This document shows positions 1-7,129 of a DNA stretch of 56,790 nt, in pieces. The notes under the pieces are model-generated. The model saw only the letters and a list, made by a program, of their open reading frames with translations. It ran no database searches and had not been told where the DNA came from. The DNA comes from a virus (Duplodnaviria > Heunggongvirae > Uroviricota > Caudoviricetes), in IMG/VR virus record IMGVR_UViG_3300021400_000048, positions 1 to 56,790 of that record; one strand, written 5' to 3'. Both the position numbers and the translations under genes were made by a program. Numbering within the stretch: position 1 is the first letter of the stretch; each line of letters starts with the position of its first letter.

Positions 1-233
1 TCATCTAACGATAATGTTGATGGATAATCTTCAACCTGCTTCACTTCCCTCTTCGAGACGCACTGTTAAAGTAATCGAAGTCTTTGATTACACATCTACG
101 GAATACGTTCTCACGCAACCGCATCTATAATAATAGTATAGACTAATTTTACTTGCAACCTATTATTTAGTCATTTCCTCTATTACCACAGCTTCCCAAG
201 AATATTTTTATTCAATTTAGACCGTGTTTTGGT

Positions 234-318
234 TGGTTGCGGAGGTCAGGAGTCGAACCTGCTATCTCAAGGTTATGAGCCTTGAATGGTTTATAGATAT
301 CCGTGCCACTCCTCCGCA
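234..318 (-). tRNA. tRNA-Met(CAT), fMet-like 3' end, enlarged D region
   Basis: CAAGG-CTCATAA-CCTTG anticodon arm, TTCGACT T-loop, TGCGGAG/CTCCGCA acceptor, encoded CCA. Confidence 0.8.
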
Positions 319-329
319 ATATTAATAGA

Positions 330-417
330 AGTTCCAGCCTGACCCTACCAAGCCCCTCATATTTTTGAGTCTATAGCCTCTAAATATGCATGCCACAACT
401 TCCAGCACCTTGGAACT
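330..417 (-). ncRNA. Candidate small structured RNA
   Basis: Terminal stem AGTTCCA/TGGAACT, inner stem CATATTT/AAATATG, starts directly after a TTGTATAAT promoter (421-435). Confidence 0.4.
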
Positions 418-420
418 ATT

Positions 421-435
421 ATATTATACAATAAA
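421..435 (-). promoter_or_regulatory. Sigma70-like extended -10 promoter motif (TATTGTATAATAwwAT), repeated through the window
   Basis: Further copies at about 4551, 7601, 11001, 11157, 13021, 18741, 23296, 27760, 30997, 32001, 35670, 43167, 45961, 46055 (minus) and 46111 (plus, before the topoisomerase B gene), each at an operon start. Confidence 0.75.
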
Positions 436-708
436 AATTTTAAAATTATTTGAAAGTTTTTTGACTACAGGATAACTTGCAACCCGCCCACCATCCAGTG
501 CGATTTATTATATTCTCACTTATGAATACACTTTGCACAAACATTTGAAGGAAAATTTTTCCAAATAAATCGCAGTAGGCTTCCCTGTCACAGTAAACCT
601 CTTAATAGCCTGATCTTGAATTTATATAGCGAAACGCAGGGTTTTTTCGCTGGCCAGATTTTCTCAATTATGGATAGTTAGAAAATCTCGACCATATATT
701 AAATATAC

Positions 709-783
709 TGGTCCTCCCAGATTGAATTGAACAATCACTCTTGCCCTTATAAGGAGCCTGCTTTACCATTAAGCTACAGGAGG
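709..783 (-). tRNA. tRNA-Ile(TAT)
   Basis: Cloverleaf, loop CT-TAT-AA, CCA. Confidence 0.8.
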
Positions 784-785
784 AT

Positions 786-859
786 TGGTGGAGACAGCTG
801 GAATCGAACCAACATAGTTAGATGGTACCACTTCCTAACCTTTACCAAAATTCGTCCCC
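786..859 (-). ncRNA. tRNA-like RNA, reduced D-arm, 13-nt anticodon loop
   Basis: GGGGACG/TGTCTCC acceptor, TTCGATT T-loop, CCA; GTTAG-GAAGTGGTACCAT-CTAAC. Confidence 0.55.
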
Positions 860-863
860 ATAT

Positions 864-940
864 TGGTAGAAGCGGAAAGACTTGAACTTTCAACCTCTCG
901 GTTATCGGCCGAGTGCGCTAACCAGTTGTGCCACGCTTCC
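864..940 (-). tRNA. tRNA-Ile(GAT)
   Basis: Cloverleaf, loop CC-GAT-AA, CCA. Confidence 0.9.
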
Positions 941-1207
941 AGAGACCTCAGGCCCGAATGACACTGAAGTATGATCCTGCAGATTTAGCCTCATCTGCAA
1001 AAGCCTCAGTTCTTCTCAAACCTGAACACTGATAAAACGGTTGTATCGCTTAGTATGCCAAGTGCATCTGTCGATCAATTAACCAATATTTGATCCAAAC
1101 TAAGCTAGTCTGTTAGTCTCTTAACCACCCGGCACAGACAACTGGTAGCATTTCGTTTGCTCACGCCTATCTTTTTTGGTTAGAGGCATAAGAATTAGTC
1201 CTCTTAA

Positions 1208-1286
1208 TGGTGGATCCAAAGAGAATTGAACTCTTCTGATTTCCGCATTGCAGGTGCGGCGACCACCCCATGCAGTCCCTGAACCC
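1208..1286 (-). tRNA. tRNA-Ala(TGC)
   Basis: CCGCA-CCTGCAA-TGCGG, CCA. Confidence 0.85.
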
Positions 1287-1289
1287 AAA

Positions 1290-1510
1290 TTATAAATAGG
1301 GTTGCTTAAGGTGAACCCTCTAACGCCTCGTTTATGGCGACACAACCTATTAACCGAATACACCGTTTCCAGCCGTTTAATAGGACAAAATATTTTGACT
1401 TTTTAAAAATAGTACATACGATATTATAACCTTGCAGGCACAACCCTGCTAGCAAGACTTTCTCCTGGAGTTCCCCGGCTTTCTTAATCTTATTTTTGGG
1501 CATTTCAGCT
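1290..1510 (-). ncRNA. Candidate structured RNA
   Basis: Relatively GC-rich intergenic block with nested helices (CTTGC-TAGCAGG-GTTGTG-CCTGC-AAG). Confidence 0.3.
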
Positions 1511-1618
1511 TATTCAATATATTAAGTAGTCCACTTACTATTAATAATTATTCTTTTTAAAGTCGACATCCAAAGAAATTATTAATAACACTCAATTCAG
1601 TACCAGGTGGTGGAACAT

Positions 1619-1694
1619 TGGCGTGCTTAGAAAGATTCGAACTCTCGTCTGTTGGTTCGTAGCCAACTAGTTTCTCCAATTAGCCTATAAGCAC
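1619..1694 (-). tRNA. tRNA-Arg(ACG)
   Basis: GTTGG-CTACGAA-CCAAC, CCA. Confidence 0.9.
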
Positions 1695-1699
1695 AAAAT

Positions 1700-1875
1700 A
1701 ATCAGGTCTTTGGTGACTCTGCGAATTTCCACACCTAGTATGTTATCCAATTCCCTAACGCTATACTCGGGTTATCGACCTGAAGCTCCTTCGCTCTCTT
1801 TGTAGTTTATTCGAACACTATAACGATATCGATTTTATTTATTGTCTGAACAGCACGACTGTCTTTCTTTTTCGA
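1700..1875 (-). ncRNA. Candidate structured RNA
   Basis: CAGGTC/GACCTG closing stem, GGTG/CACC inner stem, AGACAG..GTCT-type hairpin, no ORF. Confidence 0.35.
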
Positions 1876-1899
1876 TAAATAGACATTTAATCCATATTA

Positions 1900-2115
1900 T
1901 TATAGCCTATCAGCAATAACTGCTAATATTACACCAATGATAATTAATAAAAGGCCTAAACCAATACTAAAAATTATTGGACTTAATACCCAAAACCAAT
2001 TCCAGTCAATAACTCCACATAATTTTAATACTACAAAAACAATTGTTAATATAGAGCCTAGTCCAAGACCTCCACTTCTTACTACTTTTGTTTCTTGTTT
2101 TGGTTCATTATACAT
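1900..2115 (-). CDS. Small two-TM membrane protein (holin-like possible)
   Basis: 71 aa, two hydrophobic segments, SD AAAGGA. Confidence 0.7.
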   Translation of the reverse strand: MYNEPKQETKVVRSGGLGLGSILTIVFVVLKLCGVIDWNWFWVLSPIIFSIGLGLLLIIIGVILAVIADRL

Positions 2116-2137
2116 ATTAATTTTTCCTTTCTTTTAA

Positions 2138-2223
2138 TGGTGGGCAGAGAAGGAGTTGCACCTCCGTTGTTTCTATGTGAGGGATTTACAGTCCCTTGCC
2201 CTCGCTGCTAGGCATACCTGCCC
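2138..2223 (-). tRNA. tRNA-Tyr(GTA)
   Basis: AGGGA-CTGTAAA-TCCCT, long variable arm, CCA. Confidence 0.9.
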
Positions 2224-2227
2224 AATT

Positions 2228-2302
2228 TGGAGCAAGTGGACGGGATCGAACCGACACTCCCAGCTTGGAGGGCTGGAGCACTAACCATTATACTACACCT
2301 GC
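2228..2302 (-). tRNA. tRNA-Gly(TCC)
   Basis: CCAGC-CCTCCAA-GCTGG, U73, CCA. Confidence 0.9.
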
Positions 2303-2310
2303 AAATATTT

Positions 2311-2375
2311 GGCCTAACTAATATGAATTTCTTAGCAGGAAAATGCCTTACGGCTAGAAATAAGTATAGGCTCTA
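2311..2375 (-). repeat. Bracket element C (short insert containing TCCTGCTA)
   Basis: TAGA-GCCTA-T-AC-TTATTTCT ... TCATATTA-GT-TAGGC-C. Confidence 0.8.
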
Positions 2376-2392
2376 TTTTATTTTTAATTTAA

Positions 2393-2505
2393 GGCTGAAC
2401 TTTTATTTTGGCGAGAATAGGATTTGAACCTATAACCTCTGGACTAGAATTCCAGTGCTCTACCAATTGAGCTATCCTGCTAAAAAGAAATAAGTATCAG
2501 CTCTA
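2393..2505 (-). tRNA. Bracket element B enclosing an atypical tRNA(TCT) (2409-2481) with shortened acceptor 3' strand
   Basis: TAGA-GCTGA-T-AC-TTATTTCT-TTTT|AGCAGGA...CTGGA-ATTCTAG-TCCAG...CCTAT-TCTCG-CCA|AAATAAAA-GT-TCAGC-C. Confidence 0.7.
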
Positions 2506-2523
2506 TTTTTATTTTTAATTTTT

Positions 2524-2642
2524 GGCTCAGCTAACATTACGGTGCTCTACCTCTGAGCTATATCCTAGGCACTGCTAGAATAGCAAGATTTGAACTTGCG
2601 ACCACCGGCTTACAAGGCAAATAGAAATAAGCATGAGCTCTA
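2524..2642 (-). tRNA. Circularly permuted tRNA-Thr(TGT) in bracket A (3' half 2576-2618, 5' half 2540-2567)
   Basis: Rejoined at 29/30 it gives a full cloverleaf: acceptor TAGGATA/TATTCTA, anticodon stem CCG|GC/GCCGG, loop CTTGTAA, T-arm GCAAG-TTCAAAT-CTTGC; 8-nt linker. Confidence 0.9.
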
Positions 2643-2644
2643 TC

Positions 2645-2736
2645 TGGCGGAGAGTGTAGGATTCGAACCTACGGTCCCCCTTACGGAGGACGACAGTTTA
2701 GCAAACTGCTGGGTTAAGCCACTCCCCCAACTCTCC
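2645..2736 (-). tRNA. tRNA-Ser(GCT)
   Basis: Loop TT-GCT-AA, long variable arm, G73, CCA. Confidence 0.9.
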
Positions 2737-2743
2737 GTATAAA

Positions 2744-2820
2744 TGGTGACCCCAGCGGGATTCGAACCCACAATCTCAGCTGTGAAGGAGCCGTGACTTA
2801 ACCAATTCGTCTATGAGGCC
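2744..2820 (-). tRNA. tRNA-Glu(TTC)
   Basis: CGGCT-CCTTCAC-AGCTG, CCA. Confidence 0.85.
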
Positions 2821-2825
2821 ATATA

Positions 2826-2903
2826 TGGCGGCCCAACTAGGACTTGAACCTAGGACCTACGGTTTAACAGACCGTTGCTACTAACCAACTGAGCTACTGG
2901 GCC
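2826..2903 (-). tRNA. tRNA-Asn(GTT)
   Basis: ACGGT-CTGTTAA-ACCGT, G73, CCA. Confidence 0.9.
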
Positions 2904-2912
2904 ATTAGCTCG

Positions 2913-4088
2913 CTATTCACAAGCTTTGAAGTTGTAAATAGGAGTTATTATATTAATTATTTCAATAGTATCACTGACTTTATCAATGATTTCTTGAGCA
3001 TTTTTATATACCATTGGTGCTTCATCAATAGTATCTTGGTCTGCAGTTGTAGTATAAATACCTTGCATTGCATTTTGGAAATCTTCTAATTGTAAATTTG
3101 CTCTTGCTTCACTTCTTGACATAATGCGTCCAGCACCATGTGGAGCAGAATAATTCCAATCTTCATTTCCTTTTCCAATACCAATTATACTACCATCTCG
3201 CATATTTAAAGGTATAATTAATTTTTGTCCTTTATAGGCAGAAATTGCACCTTTACGAACTATATTATCATCACCAATATAATTATGAATAGATTCAAAA
3301 ATATTAATTGGTCTTATATTTAAGAATTTTAATATTTTTTCTAACATTAATCTTCTATTTTCTTTTGCAAAAACTTGACAAATTCTCATATCATGAAGAT
3401 ATTGTTCTCTTAATTCACCTTCTAAAAAACATAAATCTTTTGGAATTGAATAATCTTCAAATTGCTTATGTAAATCTTTTAATGCATCAGAAATTTCTGC
3501 TTGGCGACCTTGTGCTTTTAATTTAGCAATTAGCTCAACACTTTTTTCCTTAAAGAAATCATTATGACACATTTTAACTGCTTTATCTTGATAAATATCA
3601 GCAACTTGCTTTCCTAAATTTCTTGAGCCTGAATGAATTACTAAATATTTATTATCATCAGCATCTTTATCAATTTCAATAAAATGGTTTCCGCCGCCTA
3701 ATGAACAAATACTTAATGCTAAATAATCTTTATTTCTTAATTCATTATAGCAATATAATTTAGTAATGTCAAAATCTTCAACAATATAATCATTTGCATT
3801 CATTCCGCTTGGAATTTTTGTTTTGATAAAATTATCAACAGCTTCTAAATTAATATCAACTTTACCAAGTTCTGCAACAATTACACCGCAACCAATATCT
3901 ACACCAACAATATTTGGAATTACTTTATCACCTAAGTTCGCAGTAAAACCAATTACACATCCTGCACCAGCATGAACATCTGGCATAATTCTTACCTTAG
4001 CATTTCTAAATGGCGCAAGATTTAATAAAGTATAAATTTGATTTGTTGCTTTTGGATCAATATTTTCTGTGAATATTTTTAAATTCAT
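2913..4088 (-). CDS. rtcB: RtcB family RNA ligase
   Basis: MPDVHAG, GVDIGCG, SLGGGNHFIE, IHSGSR, HNYI, SAPHGAGR, DEAPMVYK motifs; ATG at 4088 after AGGTG (ORF track starts at 4097). Confidence 0.95.
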   Translation of the reverse strand: MNLKIFTENIDPKATNQIYTLLNLAPFRNAKVRIMPDVHAGAGCVIGFTANLGDKVIPNIVGVDIGCGVIVAELGKVDINLEAVDNFIKTKIPSGMNANDYIVEDFDITKLYCYNELRNKDYLALSICSLGGGNHFIEIDKDADDNKYLVIHSGSRNLGKQVADIYQDKAVKMCHNDFFKEKSVELIAKLKAQGRQAEISDALKDLHKQFEDYSIPKDLCFLEGELREQYLHDMRICQVFAKENRRLMLEKILKFLNIRPINIFESIHNYIGDDNIVRKGAISAYKGQKLIIPLNMRDGSIIGIGKGNEDWNYSAPHGAGRIMSRSEARANLQLEDFQNAMQGIYTTTADQDTIDEAPMVYKNAQEIIDKVSDTIEIINIITPIYNFKACE

Positions 4089-4106
4089 TCTAATCACCTA
4101 ATTTCT

Positions 4107-4287
4107 GACATGACTAATATAACGCCGGCTTTACCAATTTGCCTATTTCCCCAAATTGGCCGAACTTCTTATAAAATAACCCAAATATTTGTAAAAAGAA
4201 ATAAGTATCGGCTCTATCTGGTGGGGAAAGCTGGAATCGAACCAGCATACAGCGGCTCCCAAAGCAAAGAAATAAGTACAGGTTCTA
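4107..4287 (-). tRNA. Circularly permuted tRNA-Pro(TGG) (3' half 4219-4265, 5' half 4123-4152)
   Basis: Rejoined at 29/30: acceptor GGGGAAA/TTTCCCC, stem GCG|GC/GCCGC, loop TTTGGGA, T-arm GCTGG-TTCGATT-CCAGC, A73-CCA; outer bracket ACCTG-T-AC / GT-CATGT. Confidence 0.9.
4158..4216 (-). repeat. Bracket element D nested in the linker of the permuted tRNA-Pro
   Basis: TAGA-GCCGA-T-AC-TTATTTCT ... TATAAGAA-GT-TCGGC-C. Confidence 0.8.
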
Positions 4288-4291
4288 TTTT

Positions 4292-4365
4292 TGGCAGGCA
4301 CTGAAAGAATCGAACTCTCATCAGGTGTTTTGGAGACACTTATTCTACCGTTAAACTAAGCACCT
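4292..4365 (-). tRNA. tRNA-Trp(CCA)
   Basis: Loop CT-CCA-AA, G73, CCA. Confidence 0.85.
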
Positions 4366-4379
4366 ACTATACTATTATA

Positions 4380-4454
4380 TGGTCCCAGTTGCTTGACTCG
4401 AACAAGCATTGGTCGGGTATGAACCGACTTTCCTAGCCGTTAAAAGAAACTGGG
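4380..4454 (-). tRNA. tRNA(CAT), Met or Ile2
   Basis: GTCGG-TTCATAC-CCGAC, CCA. Confidence 0.8.
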
Positions 4455-4459
4455 ATAAA

Positions 4460-4534
4460 TGGTGCCGATTGACAGATTCGAACTGCCATTAGAAGTTTAC
4501 AAGACTACTGTACTAGCCATTATACGAAACCGGC
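4460..4534 (-). tRNA. tRNA-Thr(TGT), linear
   Basis: GCCGGTT/AATCGGC acceptor, loop CTTGTAA, one T-T mismatch in the anticodon stem. Confidence 0.85.
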
Positions 4535-4740
4535 AATGTTATTTACTACATTATATTATACAATAAAATATAGTAAATTTAGTAGAATTATTTTATTTCA
4601 TTTAAGTTTAAATTATAATCAATAAATAATTCTGCAACAGTGTTTAAAAAGCTTTTAACTCTTCTTAACATTTTATTATTTCCCTTCTAGGTTTTAACGT
4701 CTTTTATCTTGACAATTTTACTAGAAGAAGATGAAGCCAT

Positions 4741-4816
4741 TGGGGTGTCCTGCCAGAATTGAACTGACAACTTCAGGGCCACAACCTAACGTGATAACCA
4801 TTTCACCAAGAACGCC
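4741..4816 (-). tRNA. tRNA-His(GTG)
   Basis: Loop TT-GTG-GC, G-1/C73, CCA. Confidence 0.85.
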
Positions 4817-4824
4817 ATATATAT

Positions 4825-4898
4825 TGGAGCATCGAGTCAGGATCGAACTGACGGTCAGGGTGTTGCAGACCCTTGCCTTACCGCTTGGCTACCGATGC
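4825..4898 (-). tRNA. tRNA-Cys(GCA)
   Basis: AGGGT-CTGCAAC-ACCCT, U73, CCA. Confidence 0.9.
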
Positions 4899-4904
4899 AA
4901 GTAT

Positions 4905-4981
4905 TGGTACCTTACATAGGAGTAGAACCTATACTGTAATGGGTTTGAGCCATCTTTCTCTACCAGTTGGAATAGTAAGGC
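4905..4981 (-). tRNA. tRNA(CAA), nominal Leu, short variable arm
   Basis: GATGG-CTCAAAC-CCATT, CCA. Confidence 0.7.
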
Positions 4982-5010
4982 ATGTAAAGCTAAGTTTAAA
5001 AACTTAACTT

Positions 5011-5430
5011 TTAATTATTTTCTCTGGCAATCTTACTTACTAAAGCCATATCAACTTGTCCATTATAGTTTGTTTTGAAAAACTTCATAATAGATGGGAT
5101 TGACTTATCAGGCAAATCATTGATTAATTCTTTTATTTTATCTTCTGATAATTGTTTTGGTAAGTATTCTTTAATTAATTCTTTTTGTTTTGTTAATTCG
5201 TCAGCTTTTTCAATTCTATTTACTTTTACATTAGCCTCAATTTCTTCATCTAATTGTTTATTTAATTTTCTTATAATATTATAAACTTCAGAATCCCCTA
5301 ATGTATCTGTTCTTAATTCAATAGTTTTATTTTTTAAACTATTATAAAGTAAACCAAGAATATTCTTCGCTAATTCATTTTTTTCTTTTCTGGCATTGAT
5401 AAAATCTGTATAAATCTTATTATATAGCAT
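5011..5430 (-). CDS. GatB/YqeY domain protein
   Basis: 139 aa helical; ARKEKN, K..REIKEYLPKQLSED, GQVDMALVSK pattern of YqeY. Confidence 0.85.
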   Translation of the reverse strand: MLYNKIYTDFINARKEKNELAKNILGLLYNSLKNKTIELRTDTLGDSEVYNIIRKLNKQLDEEIEANVKVNRIEKADELTKQKELIKEYLPKQLSEDKIKELINDLPDKSIPSIMKFFKTNYNGQVDMALVSKIARENN

Positions 5431-5453
5431 ATTTATATTCCTTTCTTGTCTTT

Positions 5454-5538
5454 TGGAAGAGTGATTAGGATTTGCACCTAAACTTGCTGTGTCTGTAATT
5501 ACCCCTGGGAGCTATGCTACTAGTTACATTATCACTCT
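5454..5538 (-). ncRNA. tRNA-like RNA with expanded non-canonical anticodon arm
   Basis: AGAGTGA/TCACTCT acceptor, TTAGG-TGCAAAT-CCTAA, U73-CCA; GCT[22 nt]AGC in place of the anticodon arm. Confidence 0.55.
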
Positions 5539-5543
5539 ATTAA

Positions 5544-5620
5544 TGGTGCGCCCAGCAGGACTCGAACCTGCAAAATTCAGTTTCTAAGACTGGCACCTAT
5601 ACCAGTTCGGTTATGAGCGC
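5544..5620 (-). tRNA. tRNA(TAG), nominal Leu, short variable arm
   Basis: CCAGT-CTTAGAA-ACTGA, CCA. Confidence 0.8.
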
Positions 5621-5623
5621 ATA

Positions 5624-5700
5624 TGGTCAGGGTAGTAGGATTCGAACCTACAACTTCTAAGTTCCAGGCCTAGTGGTCTACCAAATTGACGTATACCCTG
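5624..5700 (-). tRNA. tRNA-Pro(TGG), linear
   Basis: C1-G72, A73, loop CC-TGG-AA. Confidence 0.85.
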
Positions 5701-5706
5701 ATTTAT

Positions 5707-5796
5707 TGGCGAAGAGTGTAGGATTTGAACCCACGGTGGCTTTCACCACGTCTGATTTCAAGTCAGGTGCAATAAACCAAACTCTGCCAACTCTCC
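5707..5796 (-). tRNA. tRNA-Ser(TGA)
   Basis: Loop CT-TGA-AA, long variable arm, G73. Confidence 0.9.
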
Positions 5797-5807
5797 AAAA
5801 TTATTCA

Positions 5808-5981
5808 CTAATTTAATTCTTTTTTAGTTTCTGATTTTTCTTTTTGTCTTAAGTGCTTTCTATGAAGTCTACCTTTAACAAAATCCTTATAGACTTTGCA
5901 ATGTCTTCTAACTCGTTTATTTTTTCTTTGACAAGTTAAATAATCACACCAACAACAACAATTAATTATTTCTTTCTTCAT
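5808..5981 (-). CDS. Small basic Cys-rich hypothetical protein (57 aa)
   Basis: SD AAGGA; MKKEIINCCCWCDYLTCQRKNKRVRRH... Confidence 0.45.
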   Translation of the reverse strand: MKKEIINCCCWCDYLTCQRKNKRVRRHCKVYKDFVKGRLHRKHLRQKEKSETKKELN

Positions 5982-5998
5982 AAATAATTCCTTTTTAA

Positions 5999-6074
5999 TG
6001 GCGGTCCCCCTTGGAATTGCACCAAGTTCTGCGGATTTTCAGTCCGCTGCATAGACTACCTCTGCCAGAGAACC
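5999..6074 (-). tRNA. tRNA-Phe(GAA)
   Basis: GCGGA-CTGAAAA-TCCGC, CCA. Confidence 0.85.
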
Positions 6075-6082
6075 ATATATTT

Positions 6083-6152
6083 GGCCTAGCTTCACACCCA
6101 TTGATTAAAAGTCAATTGCTCTATTGAGCTCTAGAAATAAGCATAGGCTCTA
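6083..6152 (-). repeat. Bracket element E enclosing D- and anticodon arms of a tRNA-Lys(TTT)
   Basis: TAGA-GCCTA-T-GC-TTATTTCT-AGAGCTCAATAGAGC-A-ATTGA-CTTTTAA-TCAAT...GC-TAGGC-C. Confidence 0.8.
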
Positions 6153-6162
6153 ATTATTTATT

Positions 6163-6249
6163 TGGTGGCCCGGGTGGGATTTGAACCCACACGCCTTTAC
6201 GGGCAAGGGATTTTAAGTCCCTCGTGTCTACCTATTCCGCCACCGGGCC
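6163..6249 (-). tRNA. tRNA-Leu(TAA)
   Basis: Anticodon TAA, long variable arm, A73-CCA. Confidence 0.9.
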
Positions 6250-6253
6250 ATAT

Positions 6254-6334
6254 TGGTGCAGGAAGGCAATGACTCCAGACTTGCATTTCTCATTTCTGAG
6301 CGTTCTTTTTATCGAGCAGTTGAACTACTTCCCT
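6254..6334 (-). ncRNA. Degenerate tRNA-like RNA with GAAA-tetraloop arm
   Basis: AGGGAAG/CTTCCTG acceptor-like stem, ends ACCA, CTCA-GAAA-TGAG in place of the anticodon arm. Confidence 0.4.
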
Positions 6335-6487
6335 ACGATTTAGAACTAGCTACAAATCGAGAAAACTTGCTATTTTTAAGTTGATTTATTTGCCACCTAT
6401 CCATAATGTGGTCGTGGAGATACTTATATACCGCACTCTCTGGGTCCTTAGGGCGGTCCAACTGGTTTATTTAGTTTTCCTTCTAAT

Positions 6488-6564
6488 TGGTGCTCTGAGC
6501 ATGGATCGAACCTACGACATCTTGCTTGTAGGACAAGTGCTCATCCCAACTGAGCTATCAGAGC
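6488..6564 (-). tRNA. tRNA-Val(TAC)
   Basis: Loop CC-TAC-AA, CCA. Confidence 0.9.
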
Positions 6565-6568
6565 ATAT

Positions 6569-6643
6569 TGGAGCAGATAAACAGGATCGAACTGTCATTT
6601 CAACCATGGCAAGGTCGCGTAATAGCCATTATACCATATCTGC
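6569..6643 (-). tRNA. tRNA-Gly(GCC)
   Basis: CGACC-TTGCCAT-GGTTG, U73. Confidence 0.9.
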
Positions 6644-6651
6644 AAATTTAT

Positions 6652-6726
6652 TGGCATCCCCAGAAGGATTCGAACCTTCACAAATGGCTTAGAAGGCCAT
6701 TGGTCTTTCCGTTAGCCTATGAGGAT
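6652..6726 (-). tRNA. tRNA-Arg(TCT)
   Basis: ATGGC-CTTCTAA-GCCAT, G73. Confidence 0.85.
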
Positions 6727-6729
6727 ATT

Positions 6730-6805
6730 TGGTGCGTCTTCAGAGATTCGAACTCTGGACCAACAGATTAAGAGTCTGCTACTCTACCAGCTGAGTTAAA
6801 GACGC
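6730..6805 (-). tRNA. tRNA-Lys(CTT)
   Basis: GCAGA-CTCTTAA-TCTGT. Confidence 0.9.
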
Positions 6806-6813
6806 GCAACTAT

Positions 6814-6889
6814 TGGTGCGCTTGAACAGGCTCGAACTGTCGACCCACGGATTAAAAGTCCGCTGCTCTACCTACTGAGCTACAAGCGC
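6814..6889 (-). tRNA. tRNA-Lys(TTT)
   Basis: GCGGA-CTTTTAA-TCCGT. Confidence 0.9.
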
Positions 6890-6960
6890 ATAAAGTTTTC
6901 GATATTTAGTTGTTTGTTTAGATTTTCGCTTCATACGCTTAATCTCCTTTAATTTATTTT

Positions 6961-7035
6961 TGGCAGGGCCGTGCTGATTTGAACAGCAATTTACTGGGTC
7001 AAAGCCAGTTGAACTAACCATTGTTCTACAGCCCT
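6961..7035 (-). tRNA. tRNA-Gln(TTG)
   Basis: ACTGG-CTTTGAC-CCAGT, G73-CCA. Confidence 0.85.
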
Positions 7036-7129
7036 AAATAATTTTACAATATTATTATACTATATATTTTTTAATTTGTAAATAGTTTTTAAAACGAAAA
7101 CGTTTTCTATTTAGTAAATTCAAAACAGC

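Follow-up and report, generated by a model that had tools for sequence, protein, structure and literature searches.

A conserved tRNA-Arg-like unit on a handle RNA in the tRNA cluster of a large phage, most likely a tRNA look-alike

The subject of this report is a transfer RNA (tRNA)-like unit in the Caudoviricetes virus record IMGVR_UViG_3300021400_000048. The stretch of DNA that was analysed, here called the window, has 56,790 nucleotides (nt) and makes up the initial 56.8 kb of a phage record that is 223 kb long and bears terminal repeats. On the minus strand of the window lies a body resembling tRNA-Arg(UCU), enclosed between a 21-nt leader and a 7-nt trailer that is complementary to part of it. 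Such a leader and trailer with their insert are called a bracket; the Arg-like unit is bracket B, and the next one downstream is bracket C. The B-type Arg unit is real and conserved, and is most likely a look-alike of a tRNA rather than a tRNA completed by its neighbour. More specifically, B may be a non-chargeable and non-decoding mimic of tRNA-Arg that is displayed on a handle RNA, an interpretation held here with about even confidence. The handle stems covary, the Arg unit recurs in other phages together with its defects, and the handle RNAs are linked to a gene for a TerD-like protein and unlinked to RNA ligases. The handle family is most likely one used by rumen jumbo phages, and it is undescribed in the literature searched.

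The Arg(UCU)-like unit and its defects

The letters and spacings given in a preliminary description of this region, made from the sequence alone, were all recovered on the minus strand: the body at 2481..2409, its 5' acceptor strand AGCAGGA, the anticodon loop ATTCTAG, the TCCTGCT-A of bracket C and a normal tRNA-Arg(tct) at 6652. Nucleotide 1 of B lies 12 nt past the last paired base of the leader (the C at 2494), and the letters CCA at 2411..2409 stand 8 nt ahead of the trailer stem GTTCAGC (2400..2394), both as described. In the register of the Rfam tRNA model, the acceptor stem is formed by AGCAGGA and TCTCGCC, with the discriminator A next. It has five pairs, including the wobble pair G5.U68, and two non-pairs, A1.C72 and A4.C69, both of which are flagged by the model. 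The discriminator is followed by AAAT, and no CCA is encoded there. The earlier observation of a mispaired acceptor therefore stands, with two A.C oppositions, but the statement that its 3' strand is 3 nt short depends on the register, the Rfam alignment giving a full 7-nt strand.

B stands alone among the 26 tRNA-shaped genes of the window in having two acceptor mismatches and in lacking CCA behind the discriminator. The other genes all encode CCA (25/25) and 24 of these 25 have fully paired acceptors, which makes B a clear outlier. The exception to full pairing is tRNA-His, with one non-pair that is attributed to the additional base at its 5' end. B has U at position 20, in contrast to A in both true Arg tRNAs of the phage, and C35 is present. 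A20 is a main determinant for arginyl-tRNA synthetase (ArgRS) in bacteria, where A20 and C35 form the Arg identity set. The anticodon loop reads A32-U33-UCU-A37-G38. Because of its weak acceptor, the lack of CCA and A20, and the unusual A32/G38 loop, B is likely to be neither charged nor decoding. The cloverleaf positions of the D- and T-loops are kept (G18, G19, T54, T55, C56 and A58 are all present), nucleotides that would serve the L-shape of a tRNA.

When ARAGORN was applied to each of the long bracket inserts, three unpermuted tRNA bodies were found, and all are Arg (tct, tct and cct). All three stand behind one leader stem, GCTGATAC, and the leaders of the Arg units in two other loci (L150 and L142) are identical to that of B. 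The first of these belongs to a close relative (L150/L153) with an RtcB ligase 93% identical and flanking DNA about 90% identical, where the neighbouring bracket A and bracket B both have orthologs. Here AGCAGGA, both A.C mismatches, the ATTCTAG loop and U20 are all kept. Of the five changes that separate the two bodies, the D-loop and the T-loop each contain two, and the fifth, U68 to C, turns the G.U pair into G-C; none of the stems of this phage (G000) is disrupted in L150. The 3' linkers have nothing in common, whereas the mismatched 7-nt strand is kept. The CCA letters noted in the preliminary description are thus present in the window, but their register is not conserved, since L150 has CCG in that place. 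In a distant unit (L142/L009), A1 and A72 form a mismatch, CCA is missing, GG is absent from the D-loop and the T-loop reads TTGCAGT; in genome G005 an Arg(cct) unit starts 17 nt past the stop codon of the gene for a ~650-aa protein considered below.

Other searches added nothing to this set. A search of GenBank phages for relatives gave ordinary tRNA matches only, an IMG/VR scan with a 20-mer of B's anticodon arm found nothing, and two records with identical B-C proved to be the same phage. Closer RtcB relatives (87-97%, from other assemblies) have different genes downstream and no further orthologs of B or C, which indicates that the B/C block is mosaic.

Handle RNAs and the linked TerD-like gene

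The genome contains the leader ATAGAGCNNATRCTTATTTCT 7 times, always on the same strand, where chance alone predicts 0.33 copies; related jumbo phages carry 7-9 handle copies each, likewise on a single strand. Further copies came from scans of viral and metagenome contigs, and 60 leaders were compared. In 55 of them, a 7-mer that pairs perfectly with leader positions 6-13 (U11 being bulged) occurs 26-104 nt downstream, and stems from foreign brackets find a partner in 4.8% of trials. The family contains 29 different stem sequences, and leader positions 6-13 and the trailer are the only covarying columns. Conservation without pairing is seen at the start of the leader, (T)AGAG, at its tail, TTATTTCT, and in the bases that flank the trailer, A on its 5' side and C on its 3' side. 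The consensus is a leader (A/T)TAGAGCNNNTRCTTATTTCT with a 7-nt trailer, and both B and C conform to it with exact partners. Since every leader covaries with the trailer of its own bracket, B and C are two distinct units. No Rfam family matches the handle.

Leaders are located just past a -10 box or a few bases past the CCA of a tRNA, and trailers often end 5-20 nt ahead of the next tRNA. The inserts, or modules, are diverse. Some are circularly permuted tRNA bodies with the acceptor capped by a short loop (Thr in bracket A, Pro at 4288), while others are D-plus-anticodon arms alone (Lys at 6153), a T arm with a hairpin, or short hairpins with a UUUGGG loop, and some inserts are as short as 16-30 nt. 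Most of these shapes could never be charged, and the permuted bodies and bare anticodon arms cannot decode. In one locus (L154:1954-2010) the stem of B encloses a 16-nt insert only, showing that the handle can stand almost alone. At 4107-4288 (minus strand) the trailer of the outer Pro leader, expected to be GTCAGGT, appears interrupted (GTCAG-aaatta-GGT).

The displayed anticodon loops, as read by the author from brackets 2643, 4288 and 6153 and loci L008-L011, L014, L026, L150 and L179, belong mostly to codons starting with A: Lys UUU, Thr UGU/GGU, Asn GUU and Arg UCU/CCU, all with U36-A37-A38. Pro UGG/GGG loops are displayed as well. The tRNAs for A-starting codons are those carrying t6A37, and the bias could point to the protein or nuclease that is baited.

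The gene that accompanies the handle RNAs encodes a protein of ~650 aa, a linkage seen in three independent tests. Brackets flank it on the same strand in 9 of 21 loci identified solely through the RNA motif, and a bracket-flanked copy occurs in four of five related genomes, the fifth having a single bracket and no homolog. When homologs were instead chosen by protein (four, of 52-58% identity), all four proved to have 1-3 brackets in the 5' leader, and three of them had more downstream. The protein has more than 500 homologs, and it matches no Pfam or PHROG family. An AlphaFold model (predicted local distance difference test score, pLDDT, 77.7) combines helical repeats with a TerD-like beta sandwich that comes after them, at 427-587, the latter matching 2qz7_B with Z 15.2 and a root mean square deviation of 2.3 (146 aligned). 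In the present phage this gene is outside the window, at about 93.9-95.9 kb of the genome (minus strand). It comes first in an operon at ~88.2-96.1 kb (locus L163) whose leader contains two short handle RNAs. It is followed by genes for an ATP-dependent DNA ligase and a 781-aa, Pnkp-like protein with kinase, metallophosphatase and Rnl1-type ligase parts, which represents a second RNA-repair route besides RtcB.

From these features a mechanism may be proposed. The handle would consist of the 21-nt leader, positions 6-13 of which pair with the downstream 7-nt trailer, with a bulged U and the conserved, unpaired UUAUUUCU. It would close around a variable module, in B a complete and unpermuted tRNA body attached via its acceptor end. 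The handle RNA would be cut from the transcript of the tRNA cluster by the enzymes that process the flanking tRNAs, and would be held by the ~650-aa helical and TerD-like protein, whose gene would always travel with the handle RNAs. The tRNA module could then engage a tRNA-binding factor, for example as bait for a nuclease that cuts anticodon loops or for a modification enzyme. The plan would be akin to that of Y RNAs, with a tRNA-like module on a Ro60-binding stem. Bracket C would be a separate handle RNA with its insert folded back on itself. The suggestion of a mimic or decoy made in the preliminary description fits the mismatches, the lack of CCA and A20 and the non-decoding modules of other handles, but nothing was found in support of the closed circle that it had linked to this idea.

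Bracket C and the alternative explanations

As had been described, TCCTGCT-A is present in the adjacent bracket (2340..2333) as the complement of B's AGCAGGA (TCCTGCTA in C). The complementarity exceeds 7 bases, with 9 perfect bases (TCCTGCTAA) and a total of 12 bp if one G.U is included (2486..2475 against 2340..2329). When the 106-nt segment downstream was subjected to 20,000 dinucleotide shuffles, TCCTGCT turned up in 54 of them, and a shuffled-query test of the match over 350 nt gave p = 0.0025. With 21 occurrences of the heptamer on this strand across the 223 kb of the genome, the probability of meeting it by chance within a few hundred bases is roughly 1-6%.

Folded alone, C forms a rod in which ATTTCT-AGC...AGG is paired to CCT-GCT-(A)-AGAAAT; the small hairpin that follows the leader of C (Table 1) competes with the local pairing AGC/GCT and AGG/CCT in this minimum free energy (MFE) fold. 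The complement GCTAAGAAAT is best explained as the 3' strand of C's own hairpin, which would also match B because all leaders have the end ATTTCT and the inserts of B and C both go on with AGC..AGG. The simplest account of the sequences would thus be that the match of C to B reflects this hairpin together with a leader tail common to both; the shared AGC..AGG may be due to common descent or to chance. Just one further phage emerged from a scan for C-type brackets. The same 10-mer as GCCGTAAGGC occurs at the same bracket position in a distant phage (L014/L017), and this second C-type bracket, in L014, is not complementary to the brackets next to it. Inter-bracket pairing as a general trait of C-type brackets was rejected accordingly.

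In the close relative L150, the spot homologous to C reads TTCTTAG-AATAGCTAA-CTAAGAA. The local stem is kept there but TCCT and the leader of C are gone, and only GCTAA and AGAAAT remain of the complement; TCCTGCT is absent from the entire 7.3 kb of L150. The preliminary description had proposed that B is a two-piece tRNA completed from bracket C. L150 does not bear this out, since it keeps B with the same mismatched strand and lacks the complement, although its counterpart of C is decayed. The covariation of leaders with the trailers of the same bracket, the lack of linkage to RtcB and the lack of an endonuclease point in the same direction.

Taken together, the two-piece and spliced versions of a tRNA are unlikely without being negligible, and would be specific to this lineage. 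That two handle RNAs of this phage build one tRNA-Arg, with nt 1-65 supplied by B and the acceptor 3' strand and discriminator by C, either annealed or joined by RtcB, is improbable. It is quite unlikely that B and C act as a single two-bracket unit, an annealed composite in which the 5' strand of B and TCCTGCTA of C form the acceptor helix and TCTCGCC is displaced. The predicted energies do favour such a composite: the 12-bp match is calculated at -17.1 kcal/mol against -5.6 for B's own acceptor (chance p ~0.003), and the unconstrained MFE fold of B+C (210 nt) uses the inter-bracket helix, at -48.4 kcal/mol (z = -2.65, 1/200 shuffles), while forcing both handles to form gives -38.6. This preference is the largest among 30 neighbouring bracket pairs, the GCTAA and AGAAAT still seen in L150 may be ancestral, and the B-type unit of L142 has an 8-mer complement downstream (p = 0.0175). 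However, the inter-bracket fold breaks both handle stems, the sole helices with comparative support, and would need a double pseudoknot if the handles were formed. Preferences of -8.4 and -7.7 kcal/mol occur in other bracket pairs for which nothing similar is claimed, the complement of L142 falls outside the next bracket and does not occupy a homologous site, no complement is seen in the C-type bracket of L014, and L150 retains B and its mismatched 3' strand without TCCTGCT. The composite helix would moreover extend 5 bp beyond position 1/73, and what is established about RNase P and RNase Z suggests that this would hinder maturation.

A true split or intron-containing tRNA-Arg, in which the 75 nt from position 65 to TCCTGCTA would be removed and the ends joined by RtcB, or the body circularised, is highly improbable. 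It would suit the location of rtcB, ~400 nt upstream on the same strand, the permuted Thr and Pro bodies in the same cluster, and the Pnkp-type kinase-phosphatase-ligase protein of the phage. But neither RtcB nor a Pnkp-type ligase is present in the five other handle-bearing phage records searched, of which three are 96-100% complete, and no bracket was found in 80 phage loci with RtcB relatives of 55-61% identity. As ligase and brackets do not co-occur, RtcB splicing is not a property of the family, and both RtcB and the Pnkp-type ligase were rejected as general partners of the handle. In addition, the 223-kb genome has no match to the tRNA-intron endonuclease domain (PF01974) at E <= 1, the region matches no ribozyme family of Rfam at E <= 10, the predicted folds have no bulge-helix-bulge at 65/66, and the junction sequence is not kept in L150. 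Two further structures were considered for the brackets and rejected. Self-cleaving ribozymes (hepatitis delta virus (HDV)-like P1/P2/P3, hammerhead, hairpin and pistol) were mapped by eye and a candidate P1 was seen in one copy only; an H-type pseudoknot of the leader tail with the A-rich 3' tail showed no covariation and would have connecting loops that are too short.

B could alternatively be a working tRNA-Arg(UCU) isoacceptor, released by RNase P and a 3' nuclease, given its CCA by the host and made resistant to a host anticodon nuclease by its A32/G38 loop. This is distinctly unlikely, although its score of 61 bits, its intact tertiary D- and T-loop positions and the conservation of the loop in L150 are in its favour, and C35, U36 and the A/G discriminator suit Arg identity as established for Escherichia coli ArgRS. 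Against these stand the acceptor and CCA defects that set B apart from the other 25 genes, the U20 in place of A20, the normal Arg(UCU) gene already present in the cluster, the non-standard D- and T-loops of the L142 unit, and the non-decoding shapes of all other modules on the handle. If B and C were functionless remnants of a duplicated tRNA in the course of decay, this would account for the fact that TCTCGCC departs from the perfect complement TCCTGCT at three positions, each time by a transition, and also for the visible decay of the C counterpart in L150 and the mosaic content downstream of rtcB among close relatives. Such an origin is clearly improbable, given that the Arg unit on GCTGATAC is found in three lineages, one of them distant, that the changes between the present phage and L150 spare all stems, and that both handle stems are still perfect.

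The preferred reading, a tRNA-Arg mimic displayed on a handle RNA, has its own difficulties. Besides the energies that favour the inter-bracket helix, the following points count against it. The bracket matching C in L150 has lost its leader, so that its missing TCCTGCT could be a result of decay. Selection on B is weakly shown, by five structure-neutral changes with a rough p of ~0.05. A host CCA-adding enzyme can complete a tRNA that lacks CCA, so that charging of B is possible. The helical part of the ~650-aa protein gave generic alpha-solenoid matches only (Z <= 7.5). Expression, ends, folding and protein binding of the handle RNAs are all inferred, and the decoy role and the binding by the TerD-like protein rest on gene neighbourhood and analogy.

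Genomic setting and comparison with known systems

The features of brackets B and C and their surroundings are listed in Table 1. The minus-strand tRNA cluster occupies positions 1-7100, with 27 ARAGORN calls. A tRNA-Tyr (GUA) with a long variable arm and the loop CTGTAAA is located at 2141-2223 (minus strand); it scores 43.9 bits with Rfam and is missed by ARAGORN. Sub-threshold tRNA-like matches at 238-318 and 789-859 (minus strand; tRNA-Sec model 27.5 bits and tRNA 25.1 bits) could be additional units of a degenerate or mimic kind. In three ENA rumen assemblies (L168, L169 and L170) with RtcB 98% identical, rtcB is split into parts of 134 aa and 260 aa by a LAGLIDADG homing-endonuclease gene, which could represent an intron or an intein.

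Table 1. Coordinates of brackets B and C and of neighbouring features (window positions unless marked as genome).
Feature	Position	Strand	Remarks
Leader R(B), ATAGAGCTGATACTTATTTCT	2486..2506	-	Handle stem is positions 6-13 (GCTGA-T-AC); conserved tail TTATTTCT
tRNA-Arg(UCU)-like body, 73 nt	2409..2481	-	Unpermuted order; ARAGORN tRNA-Arg(tct), Rfam tRNA 61 bits
Trailer S(B), GTTCAGC + conserved C	2393..2400	-	Exact partner of R(B) positions 6-13, U11 bulged
Leader R(C), ATAGAGCCTATACTTATTTCT	2356..2376	-	Bracket C
GCCGTAAGGC, 3-bp hairpin with GNRA (GUAA) loop	2345..2354	-	Directly after R(C)
TCCTGCTAAGAA	2329..2340	-	Complement of B's U-run + AGCAGGA (2486..2475); also 3' strand of C's own hairpin
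Trailer S(C), GTTAGGC + conserved C	2311..2318	-	Exact partner of R(C)
tRNA-Gly	2302..2228	-	8 nt after trailer S(C)
rtcB (RtcB ligase)	2913-4097		YqeY, TrpRS and Lon genes near
Normal tRNA-Arg(tct)	6652-6726		ARAGORN
Two short brackets	genome 96135, 96053		Leader of the ~650-aa protein gene

Several known systems bear some likeness to these RNAs. HDV-like theta ribozymes, which Kienbeck and colleagues are said to have described in 2024, reportedly form a conserved element directly 3' of tRNAs in the clusters of recoded gut phages. The handle differs from them in that an HDV-like P1/P3 could not be mapped consistently on its copies and no match to an HDV family was found. Phage tRNAs that counter anticodon nucleases, such as the tRNA-Lys variant of T5 that acts against PARIS (PMC11455837), share with the present case an altered anticodon loop, a large tRNA cluster and repair enzymes. 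Those tRNAs are chargeable and replace the cleaved host species (PMC11455837), whereas B lacks CCA, A20 and a sound acceptor, and sits on a handle.

Split and permuted tRNA genes, as known from Nanoarchaeum equitans and Cyanidioschyzon merolae (PMC3400036, PMC4090602), likewise have parts of tRNAs between complementary leaders and trailers, and in this one phage an RtcB-type ligase is near. Such systems need a bulge-helix-bulge and a splicing endonuclease and give chargeable tRNAs (PMC3400036, PMC4090602). Here no endonuclease was found, RtcB is missing from most handle-bearing phages, and handle modules with capped acceptors or bare anticodon arms could never become tRNAs. If an assembly of B and C did take place, it would be a counterpart in a bacterial virus of the archaeal split tRNAs, on a new RNA scaffold.

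The closest parallel is provided by the YrlA group of Y RNAs, known from bacteria and phages, and their partner Ro60/Rsr (Rfam RF02553; Chen et al. 2014, PMC4201824). In both cases a tRNA-shaped module is shown on a closing stem, and one large partner gene is adjacent on the same strand, often among RNA-repair genes. The YrlA module has a D arm, a T arm and an acceptor-like stem, B too has T and D arms, and the tRNA-like portion of the YrlA model aligns with the neighbouring bracket A at 33.8 bits. There are also clear differences. The motif GNCGAAN0-1G, found near the 5' end of YrlA RNAs (PMC4201824), occurs in none of 60 brackets and nowhere in 2660..2303, and the genome has no TROVE/Ro60 profile match at E <= 1, control genomes giving matches. 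No alignment is obtained between the handle part and the YrlA stem, the candidate partner has a TerD-like sandwich rather than a vWA domain, and B is attached by its acceptor end with a full anticodon arm, unlike YrlA, which is without one. The lack of both the TROVE domain and the motif means that the handle RNAs are not YrlA RNAs, but by analogy they appear to work on the YrlA plan.

Since tRNA finders rate B as a good tRNA-Arg, mimics of this kind inflate the tRNA counts of phages. The Arg unit is the only class with normal gene order and with one handle sequence over three lineages, and is thus the simplest member to test. If the preferred reading is correct, large phages of the rumen and gut make small RNAs that show tRNA shapes on one handle, with displayed arms of Lys, Thr, Asn, Arg and Pro types, and this handle travels with an uncharacterised TerD-like protein. 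Overall, such RNAs would represent a parallel to the Ro60/Y-RNA particle, built with another protein and another stem.
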